Below are positions 49,354 through 57,452 of a stretch of DNA of 64,000 nucleotides, piece after piece (position 1 is the first letter of the stretch; every line of letters starts with the position of its first letter). The DNA lies in contig JAKLFB010000013.1 of assembly GCA_022711435.1 (NCBI GenBank), positions 74,041 through 138,040 on the forward strand, written 5' to 3'. The translations under genes were made by a program, and so were the position numbers. The notes beneath the pieces were generated by a model. It saw only the letters and a list, made by a program, of their open reading frames with translations, searched no databases and was not told where the DNA came from. Source of the DNA: Verrucomicrobiota bacterium (GTDB taxonomy: Bacteria > Verrucomicrobiota > Verrucomicrobiia > Limisphaerales > UBA1319).

Positions 49354-49455
49354 GCGGGGCGCGAGGCGGGTGGGAGATCCGCTGGGGAAGTAACACGAAA
49401 CCAGGGGCTGGCGGGCGGCGGGCGCCGGCCCATGACATGGACTGTTGAGCTGACA

Positions 49456-52185
49456 ATGGCTGACATACCGAAGGCATACGAGCCGGGAGCGGTCGAGGCG
49501 CGGTGGTATCAATACTGGGTGGACCAGGGCTGTTTCACGGCCGATCCGCAGAGGGTATCCGAGCGCCGACCGGCCTATTCGATCGTGATCCCGCCCCCGA
49601 ACGTGACGGGCGTGCTGCACATGGGGCATGTCCTCAACAACACGATCCAGGACATCCTGGCGCGGAAGGCGCGGATGGACGGACGGGAGGTCCTGTGGCT
49701 GCCGGGGACGGACCATGCGGGGATTGCGACGCAGGCGGTGGTGGAGCGGACGCTGCGGCAGCAGGGGGTGATGAAGCATCGGGATGATCTGGGGCGGGAG
49801 CGGCTCCTGGAGCATGTCTGGCAATGGAAGGAGAAGCACGGCGGGATCATCATCCAGCAGCTCAAGAAGCTGGGCTGCTCGTGCGATTGGACGCGGGAGC
49901 GGTTCACGATGGACGCCGCCTACTCGAGGTGCGTGCAGAAGGTGTTTGTGGAGCTGTATCGGAAGGGGCTGATCTACCGGGGGCTGAGGATGGTGAACTG
50001 GGACCCGGCGGCGCGGACGGCGCTGTCGGACGAGGAGGTCGAGATGGTCGAGGAATCGAGCCATCTGTGGCATATCCGGTATCCCCTGCTCGACGAGCAC
50101 GGGCGGCCGCGGCCGGGCGAGCATCTGGTGGTGGCGACGACGCGGCCGGAGACGATGCTCGGGGACGAGGCGGTCGCGGTCAACCCGCGGGACGCGCGCT
50201 ACCAGTCGGTCGTGGGCGGGCGCTGCCTGCTGCCGTTGCGGAACAAGCCGATCCCGATCATCGCCGACGACCTGGTCGATCCGGAGTTTGGCACGGGGTG
50301 CGTGAAAGTGACGCCGGCGCACGATCCGGCAGACTACGACATGGCGATGCGGCACGCGCTGCCGGTGACGATTGTGATCGGGCCGGACGGGACGATGACG
50401 CGGGAGGCGGGGGAGGCGTATGCGGGCCTGGACGCGAAGGAGGCGCGGCGGCGGGTGGTGGAGGCGCTGCAGGCGGAGGGTCTGCAGGTGAAGGTCGAGC
50501 CTTACGTGCATCACGTCGGCTACAGCCAGCGCAGCCACGTGGCCATCGAGCCGTATCTGAGCGAGCAGTGGTTCCTGCGGTACCCGTCCGTGGCGGCGTC
50601 GGCGTCGGCGGTCGAGCAGGGGCGGATCCGGTTTCATCCGGACCGATGGGCCAAGACCTACACGCACTGGATGCAGAACCTGCGGGACTGGTGCATCAGC
50701 CGGCAGCTATGGTGGGGGCATCGGATCCCGGTCTGGTATCGGCGGGAGGCGCTGGCGGCGCGGGGCCGGACGGGGGTGTCGGGGGCGGACTGGGATCCGG
50801 CCGACATTCATTGCGATGTGAATCCGCCGGCCGATCCGGAGAACTGGGAGCAGGATCCGGATGTTCTGGACACGTGGTTCAGCTCCTGGCTGTGGCCATT
50901 TGCGACCATGGGCTGGCCGGAGAAGACCGGGCTGTTGCAGGCGTTTTATCCGACGAGCGATCTGGTCACCGGGCCGGACATCATCTTTTTCTGGGTGGCC
51001 CGGATGATCATGGCGGGGGAGGAGTTCATGGGGGAGGCGCCGTTCCGGAACGTGTATTTCACGGGGATCATTCGGGACAAGCTGGGCCGGAAGATGAGCA
51101 AGAGCCTGGGGAACTCGCCGGATCCGCTCGGGCTGATCGACCGGTATGGGGCGGACGCGCTGCGGTTCGGGGCCATGCGCAGCGCGCCCCTGGGCCAGGA
51201 TGTGCTCTTTGACGAGAAGGACGTCGAGCTGGGCCGGAACTTTTGCAACAAGCTGTGGAACGTCTGCCGGTTCCGCCAGATGCAAGGGGGCGAGCTCGAA
51301 GGCGAGATCGATCCCGCGCTGCTCACGGGCGATGACCGGTGGGTCTTGCGGCGGCTGGACGCGGCGGTTCGGGAAGTGGATGCGGCCTTTGCGGCGTATC
51401 GGTTCAACGAGGCGACGCAGACGCTGTATCGGTTCTTCTGGAGCGAGTTTTGCGACTGGCACATCGAGTCGAGCAAGGCCGCGCTCTATGGGGCGGATGC
51501 GGCGCTGAAGGCCAACAGCCTGGCGGTGATCGATTTCGTGCTGAGCCACGTGCTGCGCCTGTTTCACCCGTTCCTGCCGCACATCACGGAGGAGCTGTGG
51601 CAGGGGATGGGATTCAGCCGCGACCTGCCGGAAGGGCAGGGGGGGCGGACGATCATGACGGCGCGCTGGCCGAAGCCATGGGACGGCGAGTTCCAGGCGC
51701 ACTACCGGCTGGATGATGCCATCGAGCAGCGGGTGCAGGCCCGGAATGACCTGGTGGTCCAAGGGCGGAACCTCCGTCGCGAGGGCAACCTCGCGGCCAA
51801 CCGGAAGGTGCGCTTTGTTTTCAAACCGGTCGAGGCGTGGTCGGAGCACGAGCTGGCTGCGCTCCGGCTGCTGCTGAATGCGGATCCGCTCGAGGTGGAC
51901 GGCGCCTATGTGCCTCCCAAAGGCACACCGGCCGCCCGGAGCGCGCTCGGGGAGCTGTATCTCCCCCTGGAAGGGTTGATCAATATCGATGCCGAGCGCG
52001 GGCGGCTTCAGAAGGCGCTCGAGAAGATCGACTCGGAGATCGCGCGGATCGAGGCGAAGCTCCAGAACGCGGCTTTCGCGGCCAAGGCGCCGCCGGCGGT
52101 GCTCGAGGAGCAGCGCAAGCGTCTGGCCGAATGGCAGGGCAAACGGCAGCAGAGCCTGGCCGCACTCGAGCATTTGGGGTCGTGA
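49456..52185 (+). CDS. valS: Valine--tRNA ligase.
   Basis: The HIGH motif is PPPNVTGVLHMGH and the KMSKS motif is present. The C-terminal coiled coil is IARIEAKLQNAAFAAKAPPAVLEEQRKRL. Confidence 0.9.
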   Translation: MADIPKAYEPGAVEARWYQYWVDQGCFTADPQRVSERRPAYSIVIPPPNVTGVLHMGHVLNNTIQDILARKARMDGREVLWLPGTDHAGIATQAVVERTLRQQGVMKHRDDLGRERLLEHVWQWKEKHGGIIIQQLKKLGCSCDWTRERFTMDAAYSRCVQKVFVELYRKGLIYRGLRMVNWDPAARTALSDEEVEMVEESSHLWHIRYPLLDEHGRPRPGEHLVVATTRPETMLGDEAVAVNPRDARYQSVVGGRCLLPLRNKPIPIIADDLVDPEFGTGCVKVTPAHDPADYDMAMRHALPVTIVIGPDGTMTREAGEAYAGLDAKEARRRVVEALQAEGLQVKVEPYVHHVGYSQRSHVAIEPYLSEQWFLRYPSVAASASAVEQGRIRFHPDRWAKTYTHWMQNLRDWCISRQLWWGHRIPVWYRREALAARGRTGVSGADWDPADIHCDVNPPADPENWEQDPDVLDTWFSSWLWPFATMGWPEKTGLLQAFYPTSDLVTGPDIIFFWVARMIMAGEEFMGEAPFRNVYFTGIIRDKLGRKMSKSLGNSPDPLGLIDRYGADALRFGAMRSAPLGQDVLFDEKDVELGRNFCNKLWNVCRFRQMQGGELEGEIDPALLTGDDRWVLRRLDAAVREVDAAFAAYRFNEATQTLYRFFWSEFCDWHIESSKAALYGADAALKANSLAVIDFVLSHVLRLFHPFLPHITEELWQGMGFSRDLPEGQGGRTIMTARWPKPWDGEFQAHYRLDDAIEQRVQARNDLVVQGRNLRREGNLAANRKVRFVFKPVEAWSEHELAALRLLLNADPLEVDGAYVPPKGTPAARSALGELYLPLEGLINIDAERGRLQKALEKIDSEIARIEAKLQNAAFAAKAPPAVLEEQRKRLAEWQGKRQQSLAALEHLGS

Positions 52186-52207
52186 GGCTTTGGCCGCGCG
52201 TGTTTTT

Positions 52208-52434
52208 AAGAGCCAAGTCTTGGATGGCCGCAAGGAACGCAAAAATACGCAAAGAGGATTTTCCTGATGAAAGATCGTGTGCTCTGCCTCTGTGACATGG
52301 TCCGGGAGACGGGGTTCGAGATTCCGCCGAGTTTTTGCGTGTTTTTGCGTTTCTTGGGGCAGAAGGTTCGAGAGCCGAGTCTTGGACTTGGATAGCCGCA
52401 AGAAACGCAATAATACGCAAAAAGGAATTTCCTG
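52208..52434 (+). repeat. Tandem direct repeats upstream of and including the 5' end of the GxxExxY gene. Each unit holds a hairpin-forming element of about 100 bp (TTTTTGCGTGTTTTTGCGTTTCTTG ... CAAGAAACGCAATAATACGCAAAAA) plus the first 57 nt of the gene. Unit 1 is partial.
   Basis: The sequence gagccaagtcttggatggccgcaaggaacgcaaaaatacgcaaagagga...atgaaagatcgtgtgctctgcctctgtgacatggtccgggagacggggttcgagatt is repeated at 52324 onwards with more than 90% identity. Confidence 0.65.
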
Positions 52435-52836
52435 ATGAAAGACCGTGTGTTCTGCCTCTGTGACATGGTCCGAGAGACGGGGTTCGAGATTCATCGCTAC
52501 CATGGACCAGGCCACATGGAAAAAGTTTACGAGAACGCGCTGGTCCATCGGCTTCGAAAACGTGGATTGAAAGTCGAACAGCAATGTCCGCTCAGAGTCT
52601 ACGACGAAGATGGCACGGTGCTGGGCGAATATTTTGCGGACTTGATGGTCGAGGAGATGCTCATCGTCGAAGCGAAAGCGGCCAAAGCTGTGGCGGTCGA
52701 ACACGTGGCGCAACTCCTGGGCTACCTGCGGGCCAGCCGGGTCGAGCACGGACTTCTTGTGAACTTTGGGGCTCCCGTGTTCTTCATCAAGAAATATGTG
52801 GTGTCCGATACAATGGCCACGATCGACGGGATTTGA
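52435..52836 (+). CDS. GxxExxY family protein (PD-(D/E)XK nuclease-fold, PDDEXK_3-like).
   Basis: The GHMEKVYENAL (GxxExxY) and DLMVEEMLIVEAK (D..E.K) motifs are present. Confidence 0.8.
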   Translation: MKDRVFCLCDMVRETGFEIHRYHGPGHMEKVYENALVHRLRKRGLKVEQQCPLRVYDEDGTVLGEYFADLMVEEMLIVEAKAAKAVAVEHVAQLLGYLRASRVEHGLLVNFGAPVFFIKKYVVSDTMATIDGI

Positions 52837-52854
52837 TCCCGGCACGATTACTTT

Positions 52855-52952
52855 CCGCCCAGTTTTTGCGAGTTTTTGCATTTCTTGGGGCAAAGGATTC
52901 GAGAGCCGAGTCTTGGATAGCCGCAAGGAACGCAAAAATACGCAAAGAGGAT
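52855..52952 (+). repeat. Third copy of the ~100-bp hairpin-containing element, directly downstream of the GxxExxY gene.
   Basis: The sequence ccgcccagtttttgcgagtttttgcatttcttggggcaaaggattcgagagccgagtcttggatagccgcaaggaacgcaaaaatacgcaaagagga matches the 52324..52428 copy. Confidence 0.65.
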
Positions 52953-52979
52953 ACCCGTGAAAATGGAGGATGGCGTGTT

Positions 52980-54107
52980 TCAGTCTGCGGGATGGGCGGC
53001 TTCAGCCTGGAGGCGGAGCTGGCCGCAGGCGGCGTCGATGTTGTCTCCTTTTTCGATGCGGAGGGTGGCGGTGACGCCGGCCTTTTTGAGGGCATGGAGG
53101 AAGGCGGTCTGGGCGGGGGGGGCGGGGCGGCGCCAGGGGAGGCCATGGACCGGGTTGCAGGGGATGAGGTTGATCTTGGCGCGAAGGCGACGGGCCAGGG
53201 CTGCCAGGGGATGCGCCTGATCGAGGCCATCGTTGACCCCGTCGATGAGGATGTATTCGAGCGAGATCATCCGGCCTTTGCGGGCGAGGTAATGCTCACA
53301 GGCCGAGATCAGCTCGGAGAGGGGGTATTTGCGGTTGACGGGCATGAGGCGATTGCGGATGGCGTCGGTGGCGCCATGGAGGGAGATGGCGAGTCGGAAC
53401 TGGGGGGATTCCTCGGCGAACCGGCGGATCTGAGGGGCGAGGCCGCAGGTGGAGACGGTGATGTGGCGGGCGCCGATGGCGCCGCCCCAGGGGGCGTTGA
53501 GGATGGCGAGCGCTTTCGAGAGGGCATCGTAATTGGCCAGAGGCTCGCCCATGCCCATGACGACGAGGTTATCGATTCGGCGCCGGGGCGGAGAGGGGCG
53601 GAGCGAGGGTGTCTGCGAGGACGCGTTGGCAGCGAGCCAGCGTTCGGCGGCGAGCACCTGCTCGACGATTTCGTCGGGACCGAGGTTACGTTTCCAGCCG
53701 TGGAGGCCGCTGGCGCAGAATTTGCAGCCGAAGGCGCATCCGACCTGGGTAGAGACGCAGAGCGTGAGGCGGTCGCTCGGTTCGGCGTAGAGGGCGGGAT
53801 TGGCGGGGATGAGGACGGATTCGATATGGGCGCCATCGGCGAGGCGCCAGAGGAACTTCCGGGTTTGGCCGGGGGCGCCTTGGCAGCGTTCGAGGGTGAG
53901 GGGATGGAGCTGGAAATGGGAGGCGAGGCGGTGGCGGAGCGGGCGGGGGAGATTGGTCATGGCATCCCAGGATGCAACGCGCCAGGCATAGAGCCAGGAG
54001 AGGACCTGGGGGGCGCGGAACGGCGGCTCTCCCCAGGCGGCGAGGAGGGCGGACAGTTCATCCCGGGTTTGAGAGCGGATGTCGGGGCGGAGGGTGGGCG
54101 GCTTCAC
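52980..54107 (-). CDS. rlmN: 23S rRNA (adenine2503-C2)-methyltransferase, radical SAM.
   Basis: The radical-SAM cluster motif VSTQVGCAFGCKFCASG and the C-terminal GQLRLQ region are present. The start is proposed at GTG 54107 and overlaps the glgP stop (GTGA). The track ORF extends to 54212, overlapping glgP. Confidence 0.8.
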   Translation of the reverse strand: MKPPTLRPDIRSQTRDELSALLAAWGEPPFRAPQVLSWLYAWRVASWDAMTNLPRPLRHRLASHFQLHPLTLERCQGAPGQTRKFLWRLADGAHIESVLIPANPALYAEPSDRLTLCVSTQVGCAFGCKFCASGLHGWKRNLGPDEIVEQVLAAERWLAANASSQTPSLRPSPPRRRIDNLVVMGMGEPLANYDALSKALAILNAPWGGAIGARHITVSTCGLAPQIRRFAEESPQFRLAISLHGATDAIRNRLMPVNRKYPLSELISACEHYLARKGRMISLEYILIDGVNDGLDQAHPLAALARRLRAKINLIPCNPVHGLPWRRPAPPAQTAFLHALKKAGVTATLRIEKGDNIDAACGQLRLQAEAAHPAD

Positions 54108-56242
54108 GAGGCGTCGGGCTGGTAGTATTTCCGGGCATAATCGCGGACCATGCGCCAGGTGTTGAACTGAGGGATGAGAGTGGCCATGGCGCGGCGGATG
54201 CGGGCGATCCACTGGCGGGGGATCCCTTGTTCATCGCGCTGGTAGAAGAGGGGGATGACCTGTTCGGAGAGGACGCGGTAGAGGTTTTCGCTGTCGCGGC
54301 GGTCCTGTTCCTCGACGGAATCGGGGTGGGAATCGTCCCCGATGGCGAATCCGTTGGCGCCGTCATATCCTTCGCGCCACCAGCCGTCGAGGATGCTGAG
54401 GTTGAGGGCGCCATGGATGGCGGTTTTCTGGCCGCTGGTGCCGGAGGCTTCGAGGGGGCGGCGGGGGTTGTTGAGCCAGACATCGCAACCGGACACCATC
54501 TGGCGGGCGACGTGGATATCGTAATCCTCGAGGAACACGAGCGATCCCTGGAGGGAGGAATACTTGCTGAGATGGATGATATGCTGGATGAACCGTTTGC
54601 CGTCCTGGTCCTGGGGGTGGGCTTTGCCGGCGTAGATGAACTGGACGGGCCGGGCGGGGTTGGAGGCCAGGCGGACGACGTCGTCGAAACGCTGAAAGAT
54701 GAGGGGGGCGCGCTTGTAGGTGGCGAACCGGCGGGCGAATCCGATCGTGAGCGCATCGGGATTGAGGAGGCGGTCGAAGCTGATAAAGTCGCGTTTCTCG
54801 AGGCGCCGGTCCTGGAGGAGGAGGCGGCGCCGGGCGAACTCGATCAGCTCGCGGCGCATCTGGAAACGGAGCGCCCAGATCTCCTCGTCGGTGACGAACT
54901 GAGGATCGGCCATGCATTTCCAGAAATCGGGGTCCTGGAATCGGGACTGCCAGTCGGGGCCGACCTTGCCCTGCCAGAACCGCTGGGTGGCTGCTTTCAT
55001 CCATCCGGTGAGATGGATGCCGTTGGTGATGTGGCCGATGGGGATTTGGTCTTCGGTTTTGCCGGGGTACAGGTCGAGCCACATGCGGCGGCTGATGCGG
55101 CCATGGAGTTCGCTGACGCCGTTGGCGGCGCGGCTGGCTTTGAGGGCGAGGACGGTCATGCAGAACGGTTCGCCGGCCTGGTCGGGGCGGACCCGGCCCA
55201 GGGCCATCAGCTCCGAGATCGAGAGACCGAGCTTCTTGATGAAGTCGCCGAACACGTAATGGACCAGATCGAAATGGAACCGGTCATGGCCGGCTTCGAC
55301 GGGCGTGTGGGTGGTGAAGACGCAGCGTTCCTTGACCCAGGCGAGGGCGGATGGAAAGGAATGACCGGCCTGGATTCGCTCGCGCAGCAGTTCGAGGATG
55401 AGGAAGGCCGAATGCCCCTCGTTCATGTGGTAGAGGGATGGCTCGATGCCGAGCTTGCGCAAGACGCGGATCCCCCCGATGCCGAGGACGATCTCCTGCA
55501 TGATGCGCATCGTCTTATCGCCGCCGTAGAGGTGGAGGGTCAGATCGCGGTGGGAGGGCTCGTTCTCGGGCCGGTTCGTGTCGAGCAGATAGACGTGGCA
55601 ACGTCCGACGTTGACCCGCCAGAGCTGGAACTGGATCCTGCTGGTGGCGATTTCGATCGAATCCAGGATCGGTTCGCCTCGGCTATCGAGGACGGGCTCC
55701 ATGGGCAGGCTGGCCGGATTGAGCTGCGTGTAGTGCTCGACTTGCCAGTTCTCGTGGTTGAAGGATTGCTGGAAGAATCCCTCGCGGTAGAAGAGGCTGA
55801 CGCCGACCAGACCGAGGCCCAGGTCGCTGGCGGCCTTGGTGTGGTCGCCGGCCAGGACGCCCAGGCCGCCCGCGGCAATCGGCAGCGTCTCGTGGAAACC
55901 GAACTCGGCCGAAAAATATGCGACAGGATTCTTCGTCAAGGACGGGACATGGCAGCTGGCCCAGGTCTTTTCCCCGGCCATGTAATCCTCGAACCTGGCC
56001 AGGACATCTCGGACGCGGGCGGCGAAGGAGGGATCGAGCAGGCGGACACGGAGCTCGTAATCGGACAGCTCATGGAGGACGGCGACGGCGTTGTGGTACA
56101 GGTTCTGCCAGGCGCGAGGCGACAGCTCGTGGAAAAGCTCCTGGGCATCATGGTTCCAGGTCCACCACAGGTTGTGAGACAGGCGATTCAGGCCCTGGGC
56201 CAGTGCTTCGACATCCATCATGGTCAACGGTTTACTATTCAT
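54104..56242 (-). CDS. glgP: Alpha-glucan (glycogen/maltodextrin) phosphorylase, GT35, short bacterial/archaeal-type form.
   Basis: The sequences VAYFSAEFGFHETLPIAAGGLGVLAGDH and the PLP region FARRFATYKRAPL are present. Confidence 0.85.
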   Translation of the reverse strand: MNSKPLTMMDVEALAQGLNRLSHNLWWTWNHDAQELFHELSPRAWQNLYHNAVAVLHELSDYELRVRLLDPSFAARVRDVLARFEDYMAGEKTWASCHVPSLTKNPVAYFSAEFGFHETLPIAAGGLGVLAGDHTKAASDLGLGLVGVSLFYREGFFQQSFNHENWQVEHYTQLNPASLPMEPVLDSRGEPILDSIEIATSRIQFQLWRVNVGRCHVYLLDTNRPENEPSHRDLTLHLYGGDKTMRIMQEIVLGIGGIRVLRKLGIEPSLYHMNEGHSAFLILELLRERIQAGHSFPSALAWVKERCVFTTHTPVEAGHDRFHFDLVHYVFGDFIKKLGLSISELMALGRVRPDQAGEPFCMTVLALKASRAANGVSELHGRISRRMWLDLYPGKTEDQIPIGHITNGIHLTGWMKAATQRFWQGKVGPDWQSRFQDPDFWKCMADPQFVTDEEIWALRFQMRRELIEFARRRLLLQDRRLEKRDFISFDRLLNPDALTIGFARRFATYKRAPLIFQRFDDVVRLASNPARPVQFIYAGKAHPQDQDGKRFIQHIIHLSKYSSLQGSLVFLEDYDIHVARQMVSGCDVWLNNPRRPLEASGTSGQKTAIHGALNLSILDGWWREGYDGANGFAIGDDSHPDSVEEQDRRDSENLYRVLSEQVIPLFYQRDEQGIPRQWIARIRRAMATLIPQFNTWRMVRDYARKYYQPDAS

Positions 56243-56615
56243 GCAAACGGCCAGACGATACCACGTCGGTCGTTGATGGCAATATCGTAGTATCAGAGAA
56301 CGACGTTATTATCGCGATTCATGTTATATGCAACCTGTTTTCGATCAACGTAGTTAACGTTGTAGTTTTCCGGGGACTAACGAGGAATATCAGTTGTAAA
56401 CATCTCAATGTGAAATTTTTGTGATTAATCTATTCTTGCCAGGGCAAAATCGGGATCTGGTGAAAATGATCGGTTCCATTTTTTTGTTTTGTTTGCTTGA
56501 CATTTTGGTTTATGTGGAGGAGGATACGCTTACTCGAGAATGAATGACCAATGCCGCACGGGATGGCGATAGGCATTGTTTGGACGTTTTTGATGAAATT
56601 GGGTCATATCAGCAG

Positions 56616-57452
56616 CGAAAGCCTATGAAAAGTGCAATCCGTTGGATCGGAGTTGTGGTGGTGTTGATGTGCCTGACGCCTGCGTTGCTCGCGCAACCAT
56701 CAACGCCGTTGCCCGGTATCACCAAATGGAGCCAGTTGCCGGATCTTGAGACTGGATGGGATGTCCTGTCTCAATACCCATATCAGCCAGGAGTTCAATT
56801 TGGCAAGCTGCTAGCGGACGATTTTCTATGCACTCAAACAGGGCCGATCACCGGAGTCCGTGTTTGGGGATCGTGGTGGAATGATTTCGATAACCCTCTC
56901 CAATCATTCCAGCTCACTTTTTGGTCAGATGTGCCGAAGGGGGCTGATCCTAACACGCTTTATAGTCATCCGGGGATTCCGCTATGGACGACTGCAGCTC
57001 TCGGCCTTGGCATACCATATGCGCACGTTCTCCAGGAAGGATTTTGGGATCCCAATTTACCTGGACAAATCGGAGTTGATAATGTCGTTTGGCAATACGA
57101 TTTTCTCTTCCCAGCCGGCATGGCTTTTCAACAGACTGCGGGCAACATCTATTGGCTTTCGGTGCAGCGGATCAACAATCCCATGCAACCGGACCCATTC
57201 ACCTGGGGTTGGAAAACCTCATTCGAGCAATGGAACGATGACGCAGCTTGGACCGACAACTTTATTGATCCCTCGAGTGGCTATCCGGTGCCGACACGTT
57301 GGAGTGAGTTATTTATACCGGATCCAACAGGTCTTCAAGTGTCTCGCGACATGGCGTTTCAATTGGCCACCGTGCCTGAGCCGGTGACAGCCTCGTTGAT
57401 AGCGGGGTTGGGGCTGTTGGGGTTTGCAGCCGTGCGGAGGTTCCGCGGATAA
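56616..57452 (+). CDS. PEP-CTERM sorting-domain protein, encoded in a low-GC (about 50%) island.
   Basis: It has a signal peptide (MKSAIRWIGVVVVLMCLTPALLA). The C-terminus is TVPEPVTASLIAGLGLLGFAAVRRFRG. An AT-rich upstream region spans 56250..56615. Confidence 0.75.
   Translation, partial: RKPMKSAIRWIGVVVVLMCLTPALLAQPSTPLPGITKWSQLPDLETGWDVLSQYPYQPGVQFGKLLADDFLCTQTGPITGVRVWGSWWNDFDNPLQSFQLTFWSDVPKGADPNTLYSHPGIPLWTTAALGLGIPYAHVLQEGFWDPNLPGQIGVDNVVWQYDFLFPAGMAFQQTAGNIYWLSVQRINNPMQPDPFTWGWKTSFEQWNDDAAWTDNFIDPSSGYPVPTRWSELFIPDPTGLQVSRDMAFQLATVPEPVTASLIAGLGLLGFAAVRRFRG

Follow-up and report, generated by a model that had tools for sequence, protein, structure and literature searches.

Introduction

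The closest described counterparts of the locus analysed here are the IVSs of 23S rRNA genes. The Coxiella IVS consists of a four-helix-bundle ORF enclosed by a 28-bp terminal-repeat stem; it is cut by RNase III and its GC content lies below that of its genome (PMC4990558). ORF-containing 23S IVSs are sporadic, being acquired horizontally and kept vertically afterwards (PMC4990558). In the 64-kb window (the whole stretch of DNA that was analysed), the spacer between valS and rlmN shows a comparable design: an insert of 430–570 bp, oriented with the host transcript and lower in GC than the host, whose terminal inverted repeats of about 28–37 bp can form a stem that encloses a single small ORF. 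It differs from the rRNA IVSs in lying after valS and not in an rRNA helix (9, 25 or 45), in encoding an unrelated PD-(D/E)XK family (PF13366) and not an S23p/four-helix-bundle protein, and in forming a tandem array.

Other known elements resemble it in part. Co-transcribed MITEs (Correia in Neisseria, ERIC/IRU in enterobacteria) are likewise short, end in inverted repeats and lie in transcribed intergenic DNA, where they fold in the mRNA; Correia hairpins are RNase III substrates. MITEs, however, have no ORF, carry target-site duplications and exist as many near-identical copies per genome, whereas the cassettes described below have an ORF, no target-site duplication and one context per sequence. 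Integron cassettes and CALINs share with them promoter-less small ORFs in co-oriented tandem arrays, imperfect palindromes of 60–140 nt in between and a varied cargo that includes nucleotidyltransferase-type genes, but here core sites are absent, the ORF lies between two mutually inverted arms and single cassettes occur inside housekeeping operons. Free-standing homing endonuclease genes are also small nuclease genes wedged between conserved genes; they too are present or absent at the same site in relatives, a likeness that applies to the pyrB–pyrC site discussed below and not to the window's own. They lack long bounding inverted repeats, whereas the cassette arms do bound the gene and also carry non-nuclease cargo.

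The best explanation of the whole, to which we give a probability of roughly 60%, would be an array of inverted-repeat-bounded GxxExxY cassettes of IVS-like design, possibly processed at the RNA level.

Anatomy of the valS–rlmN array

As regards identity and anatomy, we have little doubt that the valS–rlmN spacer is a decayed tandem array of three inverted-repeat-bounded GxxExxY cassettes, co-oriented with valS. Each cassette runs from an R arm through the ORF to an L arm. The R arm (about 30–45 nt) is purine-rich, contains three CRCAA motifs spaced by 9–10 nt and ends at the ribosome-binding site/start codon; the ORF of about 125–133 codons encodes a Cas4-like minimal PD-(D/E)XK nuclease; and the pyrimidine-rich L arm, 3′ of the ORF, is the reverse complement of R. 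Cassette A is internally deleted, cassette B is intact and cassette C comprises an R arm and a short stub. A prior sequence-only reading of the window had described three copies of a hairpin element, two of them framing the gene as direct repeats of about 100 bp; the sequence features it listed all lie where it placed them. This hairpin is the L arm of one cassette, a spacer of 28–34 nt and the R arm of the next. Repeats of about 95 nt are indeed present, but those that bound the unit are inverted (R…gene…L), the direct repeat being the junction of adjacent cassettes. Of the three copies, the first (52190–52266) is incomplete, having only the right arm and a 10-nt left-arm vestige and folding no better than its shuffles (z = 0.13); only the other two are full hairpins.

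All features of the array lie on the + strand. At its upstream edge, 14 nt past the valS stop (52185), an L-arm vestige (GCGTGTTTTT, 52199–52208; a weak assignment when taken alone) matches the beginning of the L arms in units B and C, the remainder of the arm being absent. Spacer copy A (AAGAGCCAAGTCTTGGAT…, 52209–52226) separates this L arm from the following R arm and belongs to direct-repeat family D2 (52209–52259, 52377–52427 and 52902–52952). The R arm of cassette A (GCCGCAAGGAACGCAAAAATACGCAAAGA, 52227–52255) is purine-rich with three CGCAA motifs, and the 5′ remnant of its GxxExxY ORF (52267–52324), an ATG and 19 codons, is 92% identical to 52435–52492. Codons 20–133 were lost by deletion between TTC microhomologies, with the junction at the TTC of 52322–52324: past …GAGATTC, cassette A continues with CGCCGAGTTTTTGCG, matching the sequence 3′ of the intact gene (TTTCCGCCCAGTTTTTGCG). 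The resulting pseudo-ORF (52267–52395), whose peptide is 42 aa long and not 41 aa as previously given, extends into the cassette's own L arm (TTTTTGCGTGTTTTTGCGTTTCTTGGGGC, 52332–52360), a pyrimidine-rich complement of the R arms that takes part in inverted-repeat pairs I1, I2 and I3.

Between cassettes A and B lies spacer B (52361–52394), which has a small hairpin of its own and, with the flanking L and R arms, makes up the ∼95-nt ‘hairpin element’. In cassette B, the R arm (52395–52423) overlaps the ribosome-binding site (AAGGAA) of the intact GxxExxY gene (52435–52836) and stops 11 nt short of its start codon; the gene encodes a minimal PD-(D/E)XK nuclease of 133 aa. The L arm of this cassette (52863–52891) falls in direct-repeat family D3 (52853–52917 versus 52322–52386, 91% identity) and is followed by spacer C (52892–52919), which separates cassette B from cassette C. 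The latter's R arm (52920–52948) has no partner L arm and matches that of cassette A exactly over 27 nt. The diverged stretch beyond it (GAGGATACCCGTGAAAATGGAGGATGGCGTGTTTCAGTCTG…, 52949–52990) aligns with the leader and first codons of A and B and may, on this weak indication, be a third ORF start; it runs into the opposite-strand rlmN stop codon (52980–52982), and the matches of RlmN homologues end at residues 369–375 of 375.

The repeat between cassettes A and B covers 106 nt (52219–52324 versus 52387–52492, 92% identity, period 168), ATG and 19 codons included. It had been read as a tandem duplication of the promoter and the first 19 codons, but we found no sigma-70-like promoter in 51900–53200, so the ‘promoter duplication’ is unsupported; what was taken for a duplicated regulatory module is a second cassette without codons 20–133. 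The 27-nt arm pattern (up to three mismatches) occurs four times in the window, always within 52227–52946, with 0 expected, and no further copy of the element was found elsewhere in the 64 kb. Since the three units share spacers as well as arms, the array itself grew by local tandem duplication. Its structure, duplication included, recurs in two more contigs of the same species (L002 and L005), and the identical GxxExxY protein is found on 13 contigs. The immediate neighbours of the array are valS, rlmN and a phosphorylase.

The encoded protein and the folding of the arms

The placement of a GxxExxY gene between valS and rlmN is borne out both by the identities of its neighbours and by its profile matches, to TIGR04256 (E = 1e-33, 116.2 bits for a cut-off of 35) and PF13366 (PDDEXK_3; E = 4.5e-31, 108.1 bits for a cut-off of 22). 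Residues G26, E29 and Y32 of the GxxExxY motif and the PD-(D/E)XK catalytic residues D69, E79 and K81, invariant across 39 aligned relatives, are all present in the window protein, which was also assigned a restriction-endonuclease-like fold. A sequence search of solved structures and a search of PHROGs returned no match for it, and PADLOC only marginal ones (E ∼0.01), Cas4 among them. No recognised transposase (DDE, HUH, serine or tyrosine) is present in the element, the sole ORF being the 133-aa PD-(D/E)XK protein. The GC content is 50–55% at the gene and element compared with 66–68% in the flanks, and GC3 is 66% compared with 80–87%.

The internal inverted repeat does fold as a stem, as had been proposed: its arms (52332–52360 and 52395–52423) are 29 nt long, 90% complementary and 34 nt apart, and the first full hairpin reaches −54.2 kcal/mol as + strand RNA (z = −7.3). 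The second full copy (52853–52960) reaches −42.6 kcal/mol (z = −4.5). Pairing around the ORF is also favourable: as RNA duplexes, the R arm at 52227–52255 with the L arm at 52332–52360 gives −46.1 kcal/mol, and the R arm at 52395–52423 with the L arm at 52863–52891 gives −33.3 kcal/mol, with at least the approximately 25 bp of an IVS stem. The window's arms fold better on the + strand, a difference that rests on few positions.

From the valS stop to the first start codon, nothing resembling a terminator was found. A terminator scan gave three matches in the region for 1.2 expected and nothing at the hairpins beyond chance, and the hairpins have no U-tract. The Rfam scan returned only sub-threshold microRNA-like hairpin matches (best E 0.28–7), far under the gathering scores. 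The features of an intrinsic terminator or a known regulatory RNA are lacking, there being neither a U-tract stem nor an Rfam family match. The structured regulatory RNA unit previously suggested finds no Rfam counterpart either, and strand asymmetry is neutral towards it. No rRNA match was found in 51900–53300.

Homologous loci in other phyla

The possibility that the element occurs only here, for which the sequence-only reading had allowed, is contradicted by our census: homologous arms flank homologous genes at 78 of 80 loci, from about ten phyla. Of 132 strong arm matches, 104 are no farther than 150 nt from the gene; this zone accounts for 2.9% of the sequence. The arms were counted in the very loci that had served to train the arm model; the independent controls are rlmN loci, of which 80 gave one weak arm match, and an inverted-repeat score, which from flank to flank was at least 14 for 44 of 79 genes and for none of 385 control positions. 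This ungapped score replaced the RNA duplex energy of whole flanks as the chance control, as the latter is uninformative because GC-rich random flanks score equally low. Among 80 rlmN relatives (62–70% identical), neither the arms nor a GxxExxY gene adjoin rlmN in any, no exact empty site for the window's locus was found and none has valS downstream.

The upstream host gene is co-directional at 65 loci and opposite at five. The distance from the upstream gene's stop codon to the block is about 20 nt or less at most loci, and that from the block to the following start codon about 15 nt or less; the spacers occupied co-directionally include pyrB–pyrC, nuoD–nuoE and fabD–fabG. Ten loci were scanned for an rRNA context of GxxExxY cassettes and none was found. 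Besides full cassettes, we found 44 miniature R-x-L units of 70–250 bp, some of them kilobases from any GxxExxY gene, which resemble co-transcribed MITEs. Tandem arrays occur in the window and at three further loci (L030, L031 and L046), and an alternative arrangement, (R-x-L)-gene-(R-x-L), which lies outside the simple cassette model, is found at about 14 of the 80 loci. In a Verrucomicrobiota MAG, an 81%-identical gene sits in an RND efflux operon, where three R-cargo-L units follow one another and the gene is the cargo of one of them. An NTP_transf_2 gene occupies the third of these units in one strain; in another strain, this unit is a 5′-fragment plus L-arm deletion derivative, the kind of decay seen in cassette A.

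The two arms of a cassette match each other better (51.8) than shuffled partners do (39.0 ± 1.0). Repeat position 8 is G:C in 22 cassettes, A:T in 14, G:T in two and A:C in none, and it switches at least four times on the protein tree. Compensatory changes (G:C to A:T) keep the two arms of a cassette complementary. Sense-strand mismatches of the G·U type (45) are fewer than those of the A·C type (70), and the arm duplex energies are −43.4 kcal/mol for the sense and −45.6 kcal/mol for the antisense strand. With no sense-strand signal in favour of RNA-level pairing, the covariation fits DNA-level symmetry or gene conversion equally well. Moreover, the motif period of 9–10 nt could reflect protein binding on one face of duplex DNA.

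Relationship to 23S rRNA IVSs

The design extends beyond close relatives. GxxExxY genes of 32–40% identity (Sphingomonas fabD–fabG; Bacteroides after radA) have arms of 25–30 nt that differ in sequence and share the layout, and arm periods of 8–9 nt are found in other subfamilies. All five four-helix-bundle (IVS-protein family) genes examined also show the cassette design. One of them lies within a 23S rRNA gene (Azospirillum, L190) and has 36-nt arms; this IVS and the four-helix-bundle genes in operon spacers have periodic purine-rich/pyrimidine-rich arms like those of GxxExxY cassettes. Because the inverted-repeat-bounded nuclease-cassette design recurs across many phyla and matches that of 23S IVSs, the locus is a member of a large class of gene cassettes that apparently has not been described before.

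Persistence, turnover and alternative explanations

Eleven genomes have a cassette between pyrB and pyrC. There, GxxExxY identity follows PyrC identity (Spearman 0.87), and the arms, unlike the scrambled spacers, are conserved. Among relatives, the same site holds a cassette in L174, L195 and others, has been reduced to short remnants bounded by repeats in L197 and L199, and is empty in L193. The occupants include two GxxExxY cassette lineages, with CGC-type and CAC-type arms, and L199 holds a mini-cassette with unrelated AAGCTCC-type arms. The cassette is inherited vertically, with no sign of recent transposition. Recent transposition was rejected on the ground that each identical protein has a single context: three identical proteins map to one context each, and none was found in different contexts. 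No target-site duplications were detected, the flanks of 38 cassettes being similar to shuffled flanks and the few 3–5-nt matches being A-runs. The view of the gene as cargo of a small mobile element bounded by repeats holds as far as its foreign GC and GC3 and the arms at 78 of 80 loci go, and not for any recent movement.

A DNA transposon-like element would account for part of this picture. The arms would then be terminal inverted repeats recognised by the GxxExxY nuclease, which would mobilise both full-length copies and the 70–250-bp miniatures in an autonomous/MITE-like relationship, and the window would hold three insertions or duplications at different stages of decay. A single nuclease gene bounded by inverted repeats is what such an element would look like, and the cassette has the terminal inverted repeats of a MITE or IS; the 44 miniatures, some far from any GxxExxY gene, the conservation of the arm motif across phyla together with the protein, the motif period close to one DNA helical turn, the absence of G·U tolerance in the arms and the variable occupancy of the orthologous pyrB–pyrC site all agree with it. 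We nevertheless regard it as unlikely. An NTP_transf_2 gene is carried on the same arm type and non-nuclease four-helix-bundle genes on the same design, the 8–9-nt periods of other subfamilies do not fit a helical-turn rule, and neither target-site duplications nor a second context for identical proteins were found. The arms remain conserved and co-varying over a long vertical residence, during which transposition ends should decay, and to our knowledge a PD-(D/E)XK nuclease of 125 aa has no known strand-transfer activity.

More improbable still is a cassette-exchange system, in which the arms would be portable homology or recombination sites (as integron attC sites are, or through recombination between resident hairpins) and cargo would be swapped into existing R-x-L sites by host recombination. 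Differing cargo between arms of one type, the mixture of arm types at the pyrB–pyrC junction, the tandem arrays and the promoter-less, co-oriented ORFs are in its favour. However, GTTRRRY is absent from both strands of 51409–54160 (which includes 52186–52979), so that there is no attC core, and the order of the unit is R-ORF-L and not ORF-attC. Arms of 30–45 bp and about 85% identity are short for RecA-dependent exchange, and the first arrival at a new site would be left unexplained. An integron cassette in the strict sense was rejected, as RYYYAAC/GTTRRRY core sites are lacking in 51409–54160. Finally, the locus might be no more than an accident of local duplication at a regulatory or terminator hairpin belonging to this gene, without wider meaning. 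The growth of the array by local duplication of arms and spacers and the absence of other copies in the window agree with this reading, but it is hardly credible given the homologous arms at 78 of 80 unrelated loci, which together with the inverted-repeat control already contradict it, and given hairpins with no U-tract, no terminator signal beyond chance and no Rfam family match.

A possible mechanism and its implications

In the preferred reading, that of IVS-like cassettes processed at the RNA level, the array would be transcribed by read-through from valS, since there is neither a promoter-like site nor a terminator-like site before the first start codon. R and L would pair as a stem of 27–35 bp, either around the ORF or as local junction hairpins, and the stem would be an RNase III substrate as in IVSs; this cleavage is known for rRNA IVSs and would apply to the cassettes by analogy. 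In this way the insert might be looped out of the RNA or excised from it, so that its presence in operons or rRNA would be tolerated. The encoded nuclease would have a conserved role, and spread would proceed by horizontal transfer followed by long vertical residence. RNA-level processing as the function of the arms is put forward tentatively, the odds leaning slightly against it.

One may go further and ask whether GxxExxY cassettes, those of the four-helix-bundle ‘IVS protein’ and some of those with a nucleotidyltransferase gene belong to a single, so far unrecognised superclass, ‘intervening gene cassettes’, in rRNA and essential-operon spacers of at least ten phyla. With their self-complementary purine/pyrimidine arms, the inserts could be taken out of the RNA, whether RNase III or the encoded nuclease makes the cuts and perhaps with the ends rejoined, and the PD-(D/E)XK protein would serve its own element in mobility or maintenance. 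We consider this speculative and somewhat unlikely; were it true, bacterial operons would in effect have an intron-like solution that depends on a protein.

With 16,168 clusters at 50% identity, the GxxExxY family is a large one, and it has no known function. The open literature that we searched on GxxExxY/PDDEXK_3 mentions it only incidentally, and no account of the cassette was found there or in work on MITEs in Verrucomicrobia/Planctomycetes. The arms account for recurring annotation artefacts, namely C-terminal tails such as …LFASLCALCG, N-terminal extensions and pseudo-ORFs of 40 aa. Two families of ‘hypothetical proteins’ become one definable genetic element with a shared, co-varying inverted-repeat frame. 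This bears on the nature and origin of rRNA IVSs: they would represent a minority, residing in rRNA, of a far broader class that sits between the genes of essential operons (pyr, nuo, fab, RND efflux and CRISPR type III) and has cultured carriers in Pontiella, Gemmata, Stieleria, Sphingomonas and Bacteroides.

A repeated cassette in the valS–rlmN spacer

The stop codons of the convergent genes valS (49432–52185, + strand) and rlmN (52980–54212, − strand) enclose a spacer (52186–52979) that contains a GxxExxY ORF of 133 codons (52435–52836, + strand). In a profile search its product exceeds by far the curated thresholds for both TIGR04256 (‘GxxExxY protein’) and PF13366 (PDDEXK_3). The copies of an inverted repeat described around this gene in the sequence-only reading were recovered by the repeat search: two 29-nt arms (52332–52360 and 52395–52423; 90% complementary, 34 nt apart) and a further copy 3′ of the gene (52853–52952). 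The reported duplication of the first 19 codons was likewise confirmed as a 106-nt direct repeat of period 168 spanning the ATG and these codons (52219–52324 versus 52387–52492, 92% identical). A 27-nt arm pattern, allowing up to three mismatches, has four matches in the 64 kb, every one of them in this spacer (expected 0). Two of the three hairpins proposed earlier are complete and fold far better than shuffled sequence; the first has a right arm only and folds no better than shuffles. The insert is foreign by composition (GC 50–55% versus 66–68%; GC3 66% versus 80–87%). An identical GxxExxY protein occurs on 13 contigs from several metagenomes, and the repeat structure and the duplication were seen again in two of those contigs that were checked (L002 and L005, from the same species). 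For the duplicated promoter and the structured RNA suggested earlier, scans of the array region detected neither a promoter-like site nor an Rfam family match; no terminator was detected from valS to the first ATG.

Among 80 rlmN relatives there is no comparator for the valS–rlmN junction: on the downstream side of rlmN, none has valS, any arms or a GxxExxY gene. The convergent valS–rlmN adjacency (49432–54212) is itself lineage-specific, as valS lies 3′ of rlmN in 0/80 of these relatives (62–70% identical; L094–L173), about one third of which retain the phosphorylase gene upstream of rlmN. Elsewhere in the window, a GC dip (56544–57452; about 52–54% versus 66%) codes for a 302-aa secreted protein with a C-terminal PEP-CTERM-like sorting signal (VPEP...GLGLLGFAAVRRFRG).

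The repeating unit is legible around an 81%-identical GxxExxY gene located within an RND efflux operon of a Verrucomicrobiota MAG. This block begins with a purine-rich R arm, AATAGCCGCAAAGAACTCAAAAAGACGCAAGAA, overlapping the stop codon of the upstream gene, comprises three consecutive R–cargo–L units and closes with the L arm, the reverse complement of R, 4 nt 5′ of the next ATG. In one strain the cargo of the third unit is an NTP_transf_2 gene; in another, just the first ~100 nt of this gene are left, joined to the L arm. This truncation is the same type of decay as the 19-codon duplicate of the window. Re-reading the window with this R–cargo–L key gives the order L vestige, spacer, R arm of cassette A (52227–52255), 19-codon remnant, L arm (52332–52360), spacer, R arm of cassette B (52395–52423), intact gene, L arm (52863–52891), spacer, R arm of cassette C (52920–52948) and a short, diverged third-ORF stub. 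The ‘hairpin-containing direct repeat’ is thus not the unit itself: it is the L(n)–spacer–R(n+1) junction of adjoining cassettes. The remnant in cassette A ends in ...GAGATTC, followed by CGCCGAGTTTTTGCG; the sequence 3′ of the intact gene, TTTCCGCCCAGTTTTTGCG, matches this continuation; hence codons 20–133 were lost by deletion between TTC microhomologies. Since the spacers are repeated as well as the arms, the array grew by tandem duplication of entire units. The stub (52949–52990), similar to the GxxExxY leader and first codons, overlaps the rlmN stop codon (52980–52982, − strand). As alignments to RlmN homologues cease 0–6 residues short of the C-terminal end, the final few rlmN codons may derive from the cassette.

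Distribution and covariation of the arms

The GxxExxY family is large (16,168 clusters at 50% identity) and its catalytic residues are invariant; a sequence search returned no solved structure of a relative, and there was no match of note to defence-system or phage families. Five proteins of 250–270 aa (P0187, P0206, P0219, P0254 and P0256) contain two GxxExxY stretches each and are probably tandem cassettes fused by read-through. Another (P0079) is called as a GxxExxY–sulfatase fusion.

Occurrence at this locus only, which the sequence-only reading had set against its own proposal, is not what we found. In a census of one genome per species (80 loci, proteins 60–81% identical), an nhmmer arm model found arms in 78/80 loci, and the cassette is widely distributed, in Verrucomicrobiota, Planctomycetota, Acidobacteriota, Hydrogenedentota, Nitrospirota, Kiritimatiellota, Deltaproteobacteria, Armatimonadota and Actinomycetota. 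Of 132 strong matches, 104 are no farther than 150 nt from the gene, a zone that makes up 2.9% of the DNA, and 80 unrelated Verrucomicrobia (rlmN) loci gave one weak match. A model-free score agrees, with flank-to-flank inverted repeats of at least 14 at 44/79 genes versus 0/385 control positions (control maximum 13). The arms are about 71% purine in the R orientation, and 145/165 contain three CRCNA motifs spaced by 9 or 10 nt; in many annotated homologues they are translated as tails (...LFASLCALCG) or N-terminal extensions. The arrangement is R–gene–L in about 39–45 loci and (R–x–L)–gene–(R–x–L) in about 14, and short R–x–L units (n = 44, x = 13–190 nt) also occur, some of them kilobases away from the gene. 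A Verrucomicrobiota MAG (L030, 5402–7096) has five tandem R–(86–105 nt)–L miniatures with repeated spacers around one GxxExxY gene, an array far longer than that of the window. Distant GxxExxY genes on a Fusobacteria plasmid (L185, 1210–1900) and in Prevotella (L187, 1300–1990) lie between direct, not inverted, repeats (for example CAGATTTAATCCGTGTACCTAT on either side), similar to the minority arrangement.

The two arms covary. Arms from the same cassette are more alike than arms across cassettes (51.8 versus 39.0 ± 1.0). Repeat position 8 pairs as G:C in 22 cassettes, A:T in 14, G:T in two and A:C in none, with at least four switches from G:C to A:T on the protein tree, and several further positions behave in the same way. 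Sense-strand mismatches of the G·U type (45) do not outnumber those of the A·C type (70), and no strand difference in duplex energy was found. Complementarity is therefore maintained, be it at the level of RNA or of single-stranded DNA, or through conversion.

Insertion sites and turnover

The cassettes are co-oriented with their hosts: the upstream host gene runs in the same direction in 65 loci and in the opposite direction in five. At most loci the block begins no more than about 20 nt past the upstream stop codon and finishes no more than about 15 nt ahead of the next start, at junctions that include pyrB–pyrC, nuoD–nuoE, an RND operon and a holA-like gene. Identical proteins share one genomic context each. 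Vertical persistence is seen at pyrB–pyrC, occupied in 11 genomes, where GxxExxY identity (62–99%) follows PyrC identity (67–96%; Spearman 0.87). The arms of these cassettes are conserved beside unalignable spacers, and are thus selected, or homogenised, in situ. This conservation weakens the main rival explanation, a DNA-level element whose nuclease recognises its inverted repeats, as do the non-nuclease cargo of some cassettes and the comparison of cassette flanks, which revealed no target-site duplications.

Turnover is evident at the same junction in relatives with 81–93% identical PyrC, where it is occupied (L195), reduced to short repeat-bounded remnants (L197, 1674–1801, a weak one; L199, 1655–1801) or empty (L193, 1758–1801, a 42-nt spacer, and one further contig, 10 nt). 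The L199 mini-cassette has arms of an unrelated AAGCTCC type. Among Opitutales relatives, full GxxExxY cassettes with two arm types also occur at pyrB–pyrC in different genomes, and the junction has the appearance of a turnover hot spot.

Relationship to rRNA intervening sequences

On complete replicons, distantly related GxxExxY genes (32–40% identical) have a different arm sequence and the same design, as in Sphingomonas fabD–GxxExxY–fabG (TTCACGCGAAGGCGCGAGGACGCGA and its complement) and Bacteroides radA–GxxExxY (TTCACCACAGAGGACGCAGAGGACACGGAG and its complement). This design also surrounds all five genes examined for four-helix-bundle proteins (‘23S rRNA IVS protein’): in Pontiellaceae between two exbD-like genes (L077, 5050–5500; own inverted repeats GTCGAAAGTC... 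/ GACCTTCGACCTTCGAC...), in Riemerella after an Fe–S assembly gene, in Gemmatirosa (37-nt arms, (GGAGGGCA)n), on a plasmid of Picosynechococcus sp. PCC 7003 inside a type III-B CRISPR operon, where it separates cas10 from cmr3 (L192, 556–982; 29-nt purine/pyrimidine arms), and in Azospirillum lipoferum within a 23S rRNA gene (36-nt arms). The Pontiellaceae gene is followed, about 500 nt downstream, by a GxxExxY cassette, so that two cassette types are adjacent in one operon. In Coxiella, the intervening sequence (IVS) is 428–444 nt long, with a 28-bp terminal-repeat stem around a four-helix-bundle ORF and a GC content below that of the genome; RNase III cleaves it, and its origin is termed unclear (PMC4990558). 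A search confined to open literature yielded no published description of the cassette, just incidental mentions of the family.

Given this shared design and the Coxiella features, the window element is built like an ORF-bearing IVS and would work like one. By definition it is no IVS, as it does not lie in rRNA and its ORF is from a different family. The array would be transcribed by read-through from valS, and R would pair with L to form putative RNase III substrates (candidate stems of −46.1 kcal/mol for cassette A and −33.3 kcal/mol for cassette B; −43.9 and −35.9 kcal/mol for the local junction hairpins). Cleavage of these stems would keep the insert and the host transcript insulated from each other.
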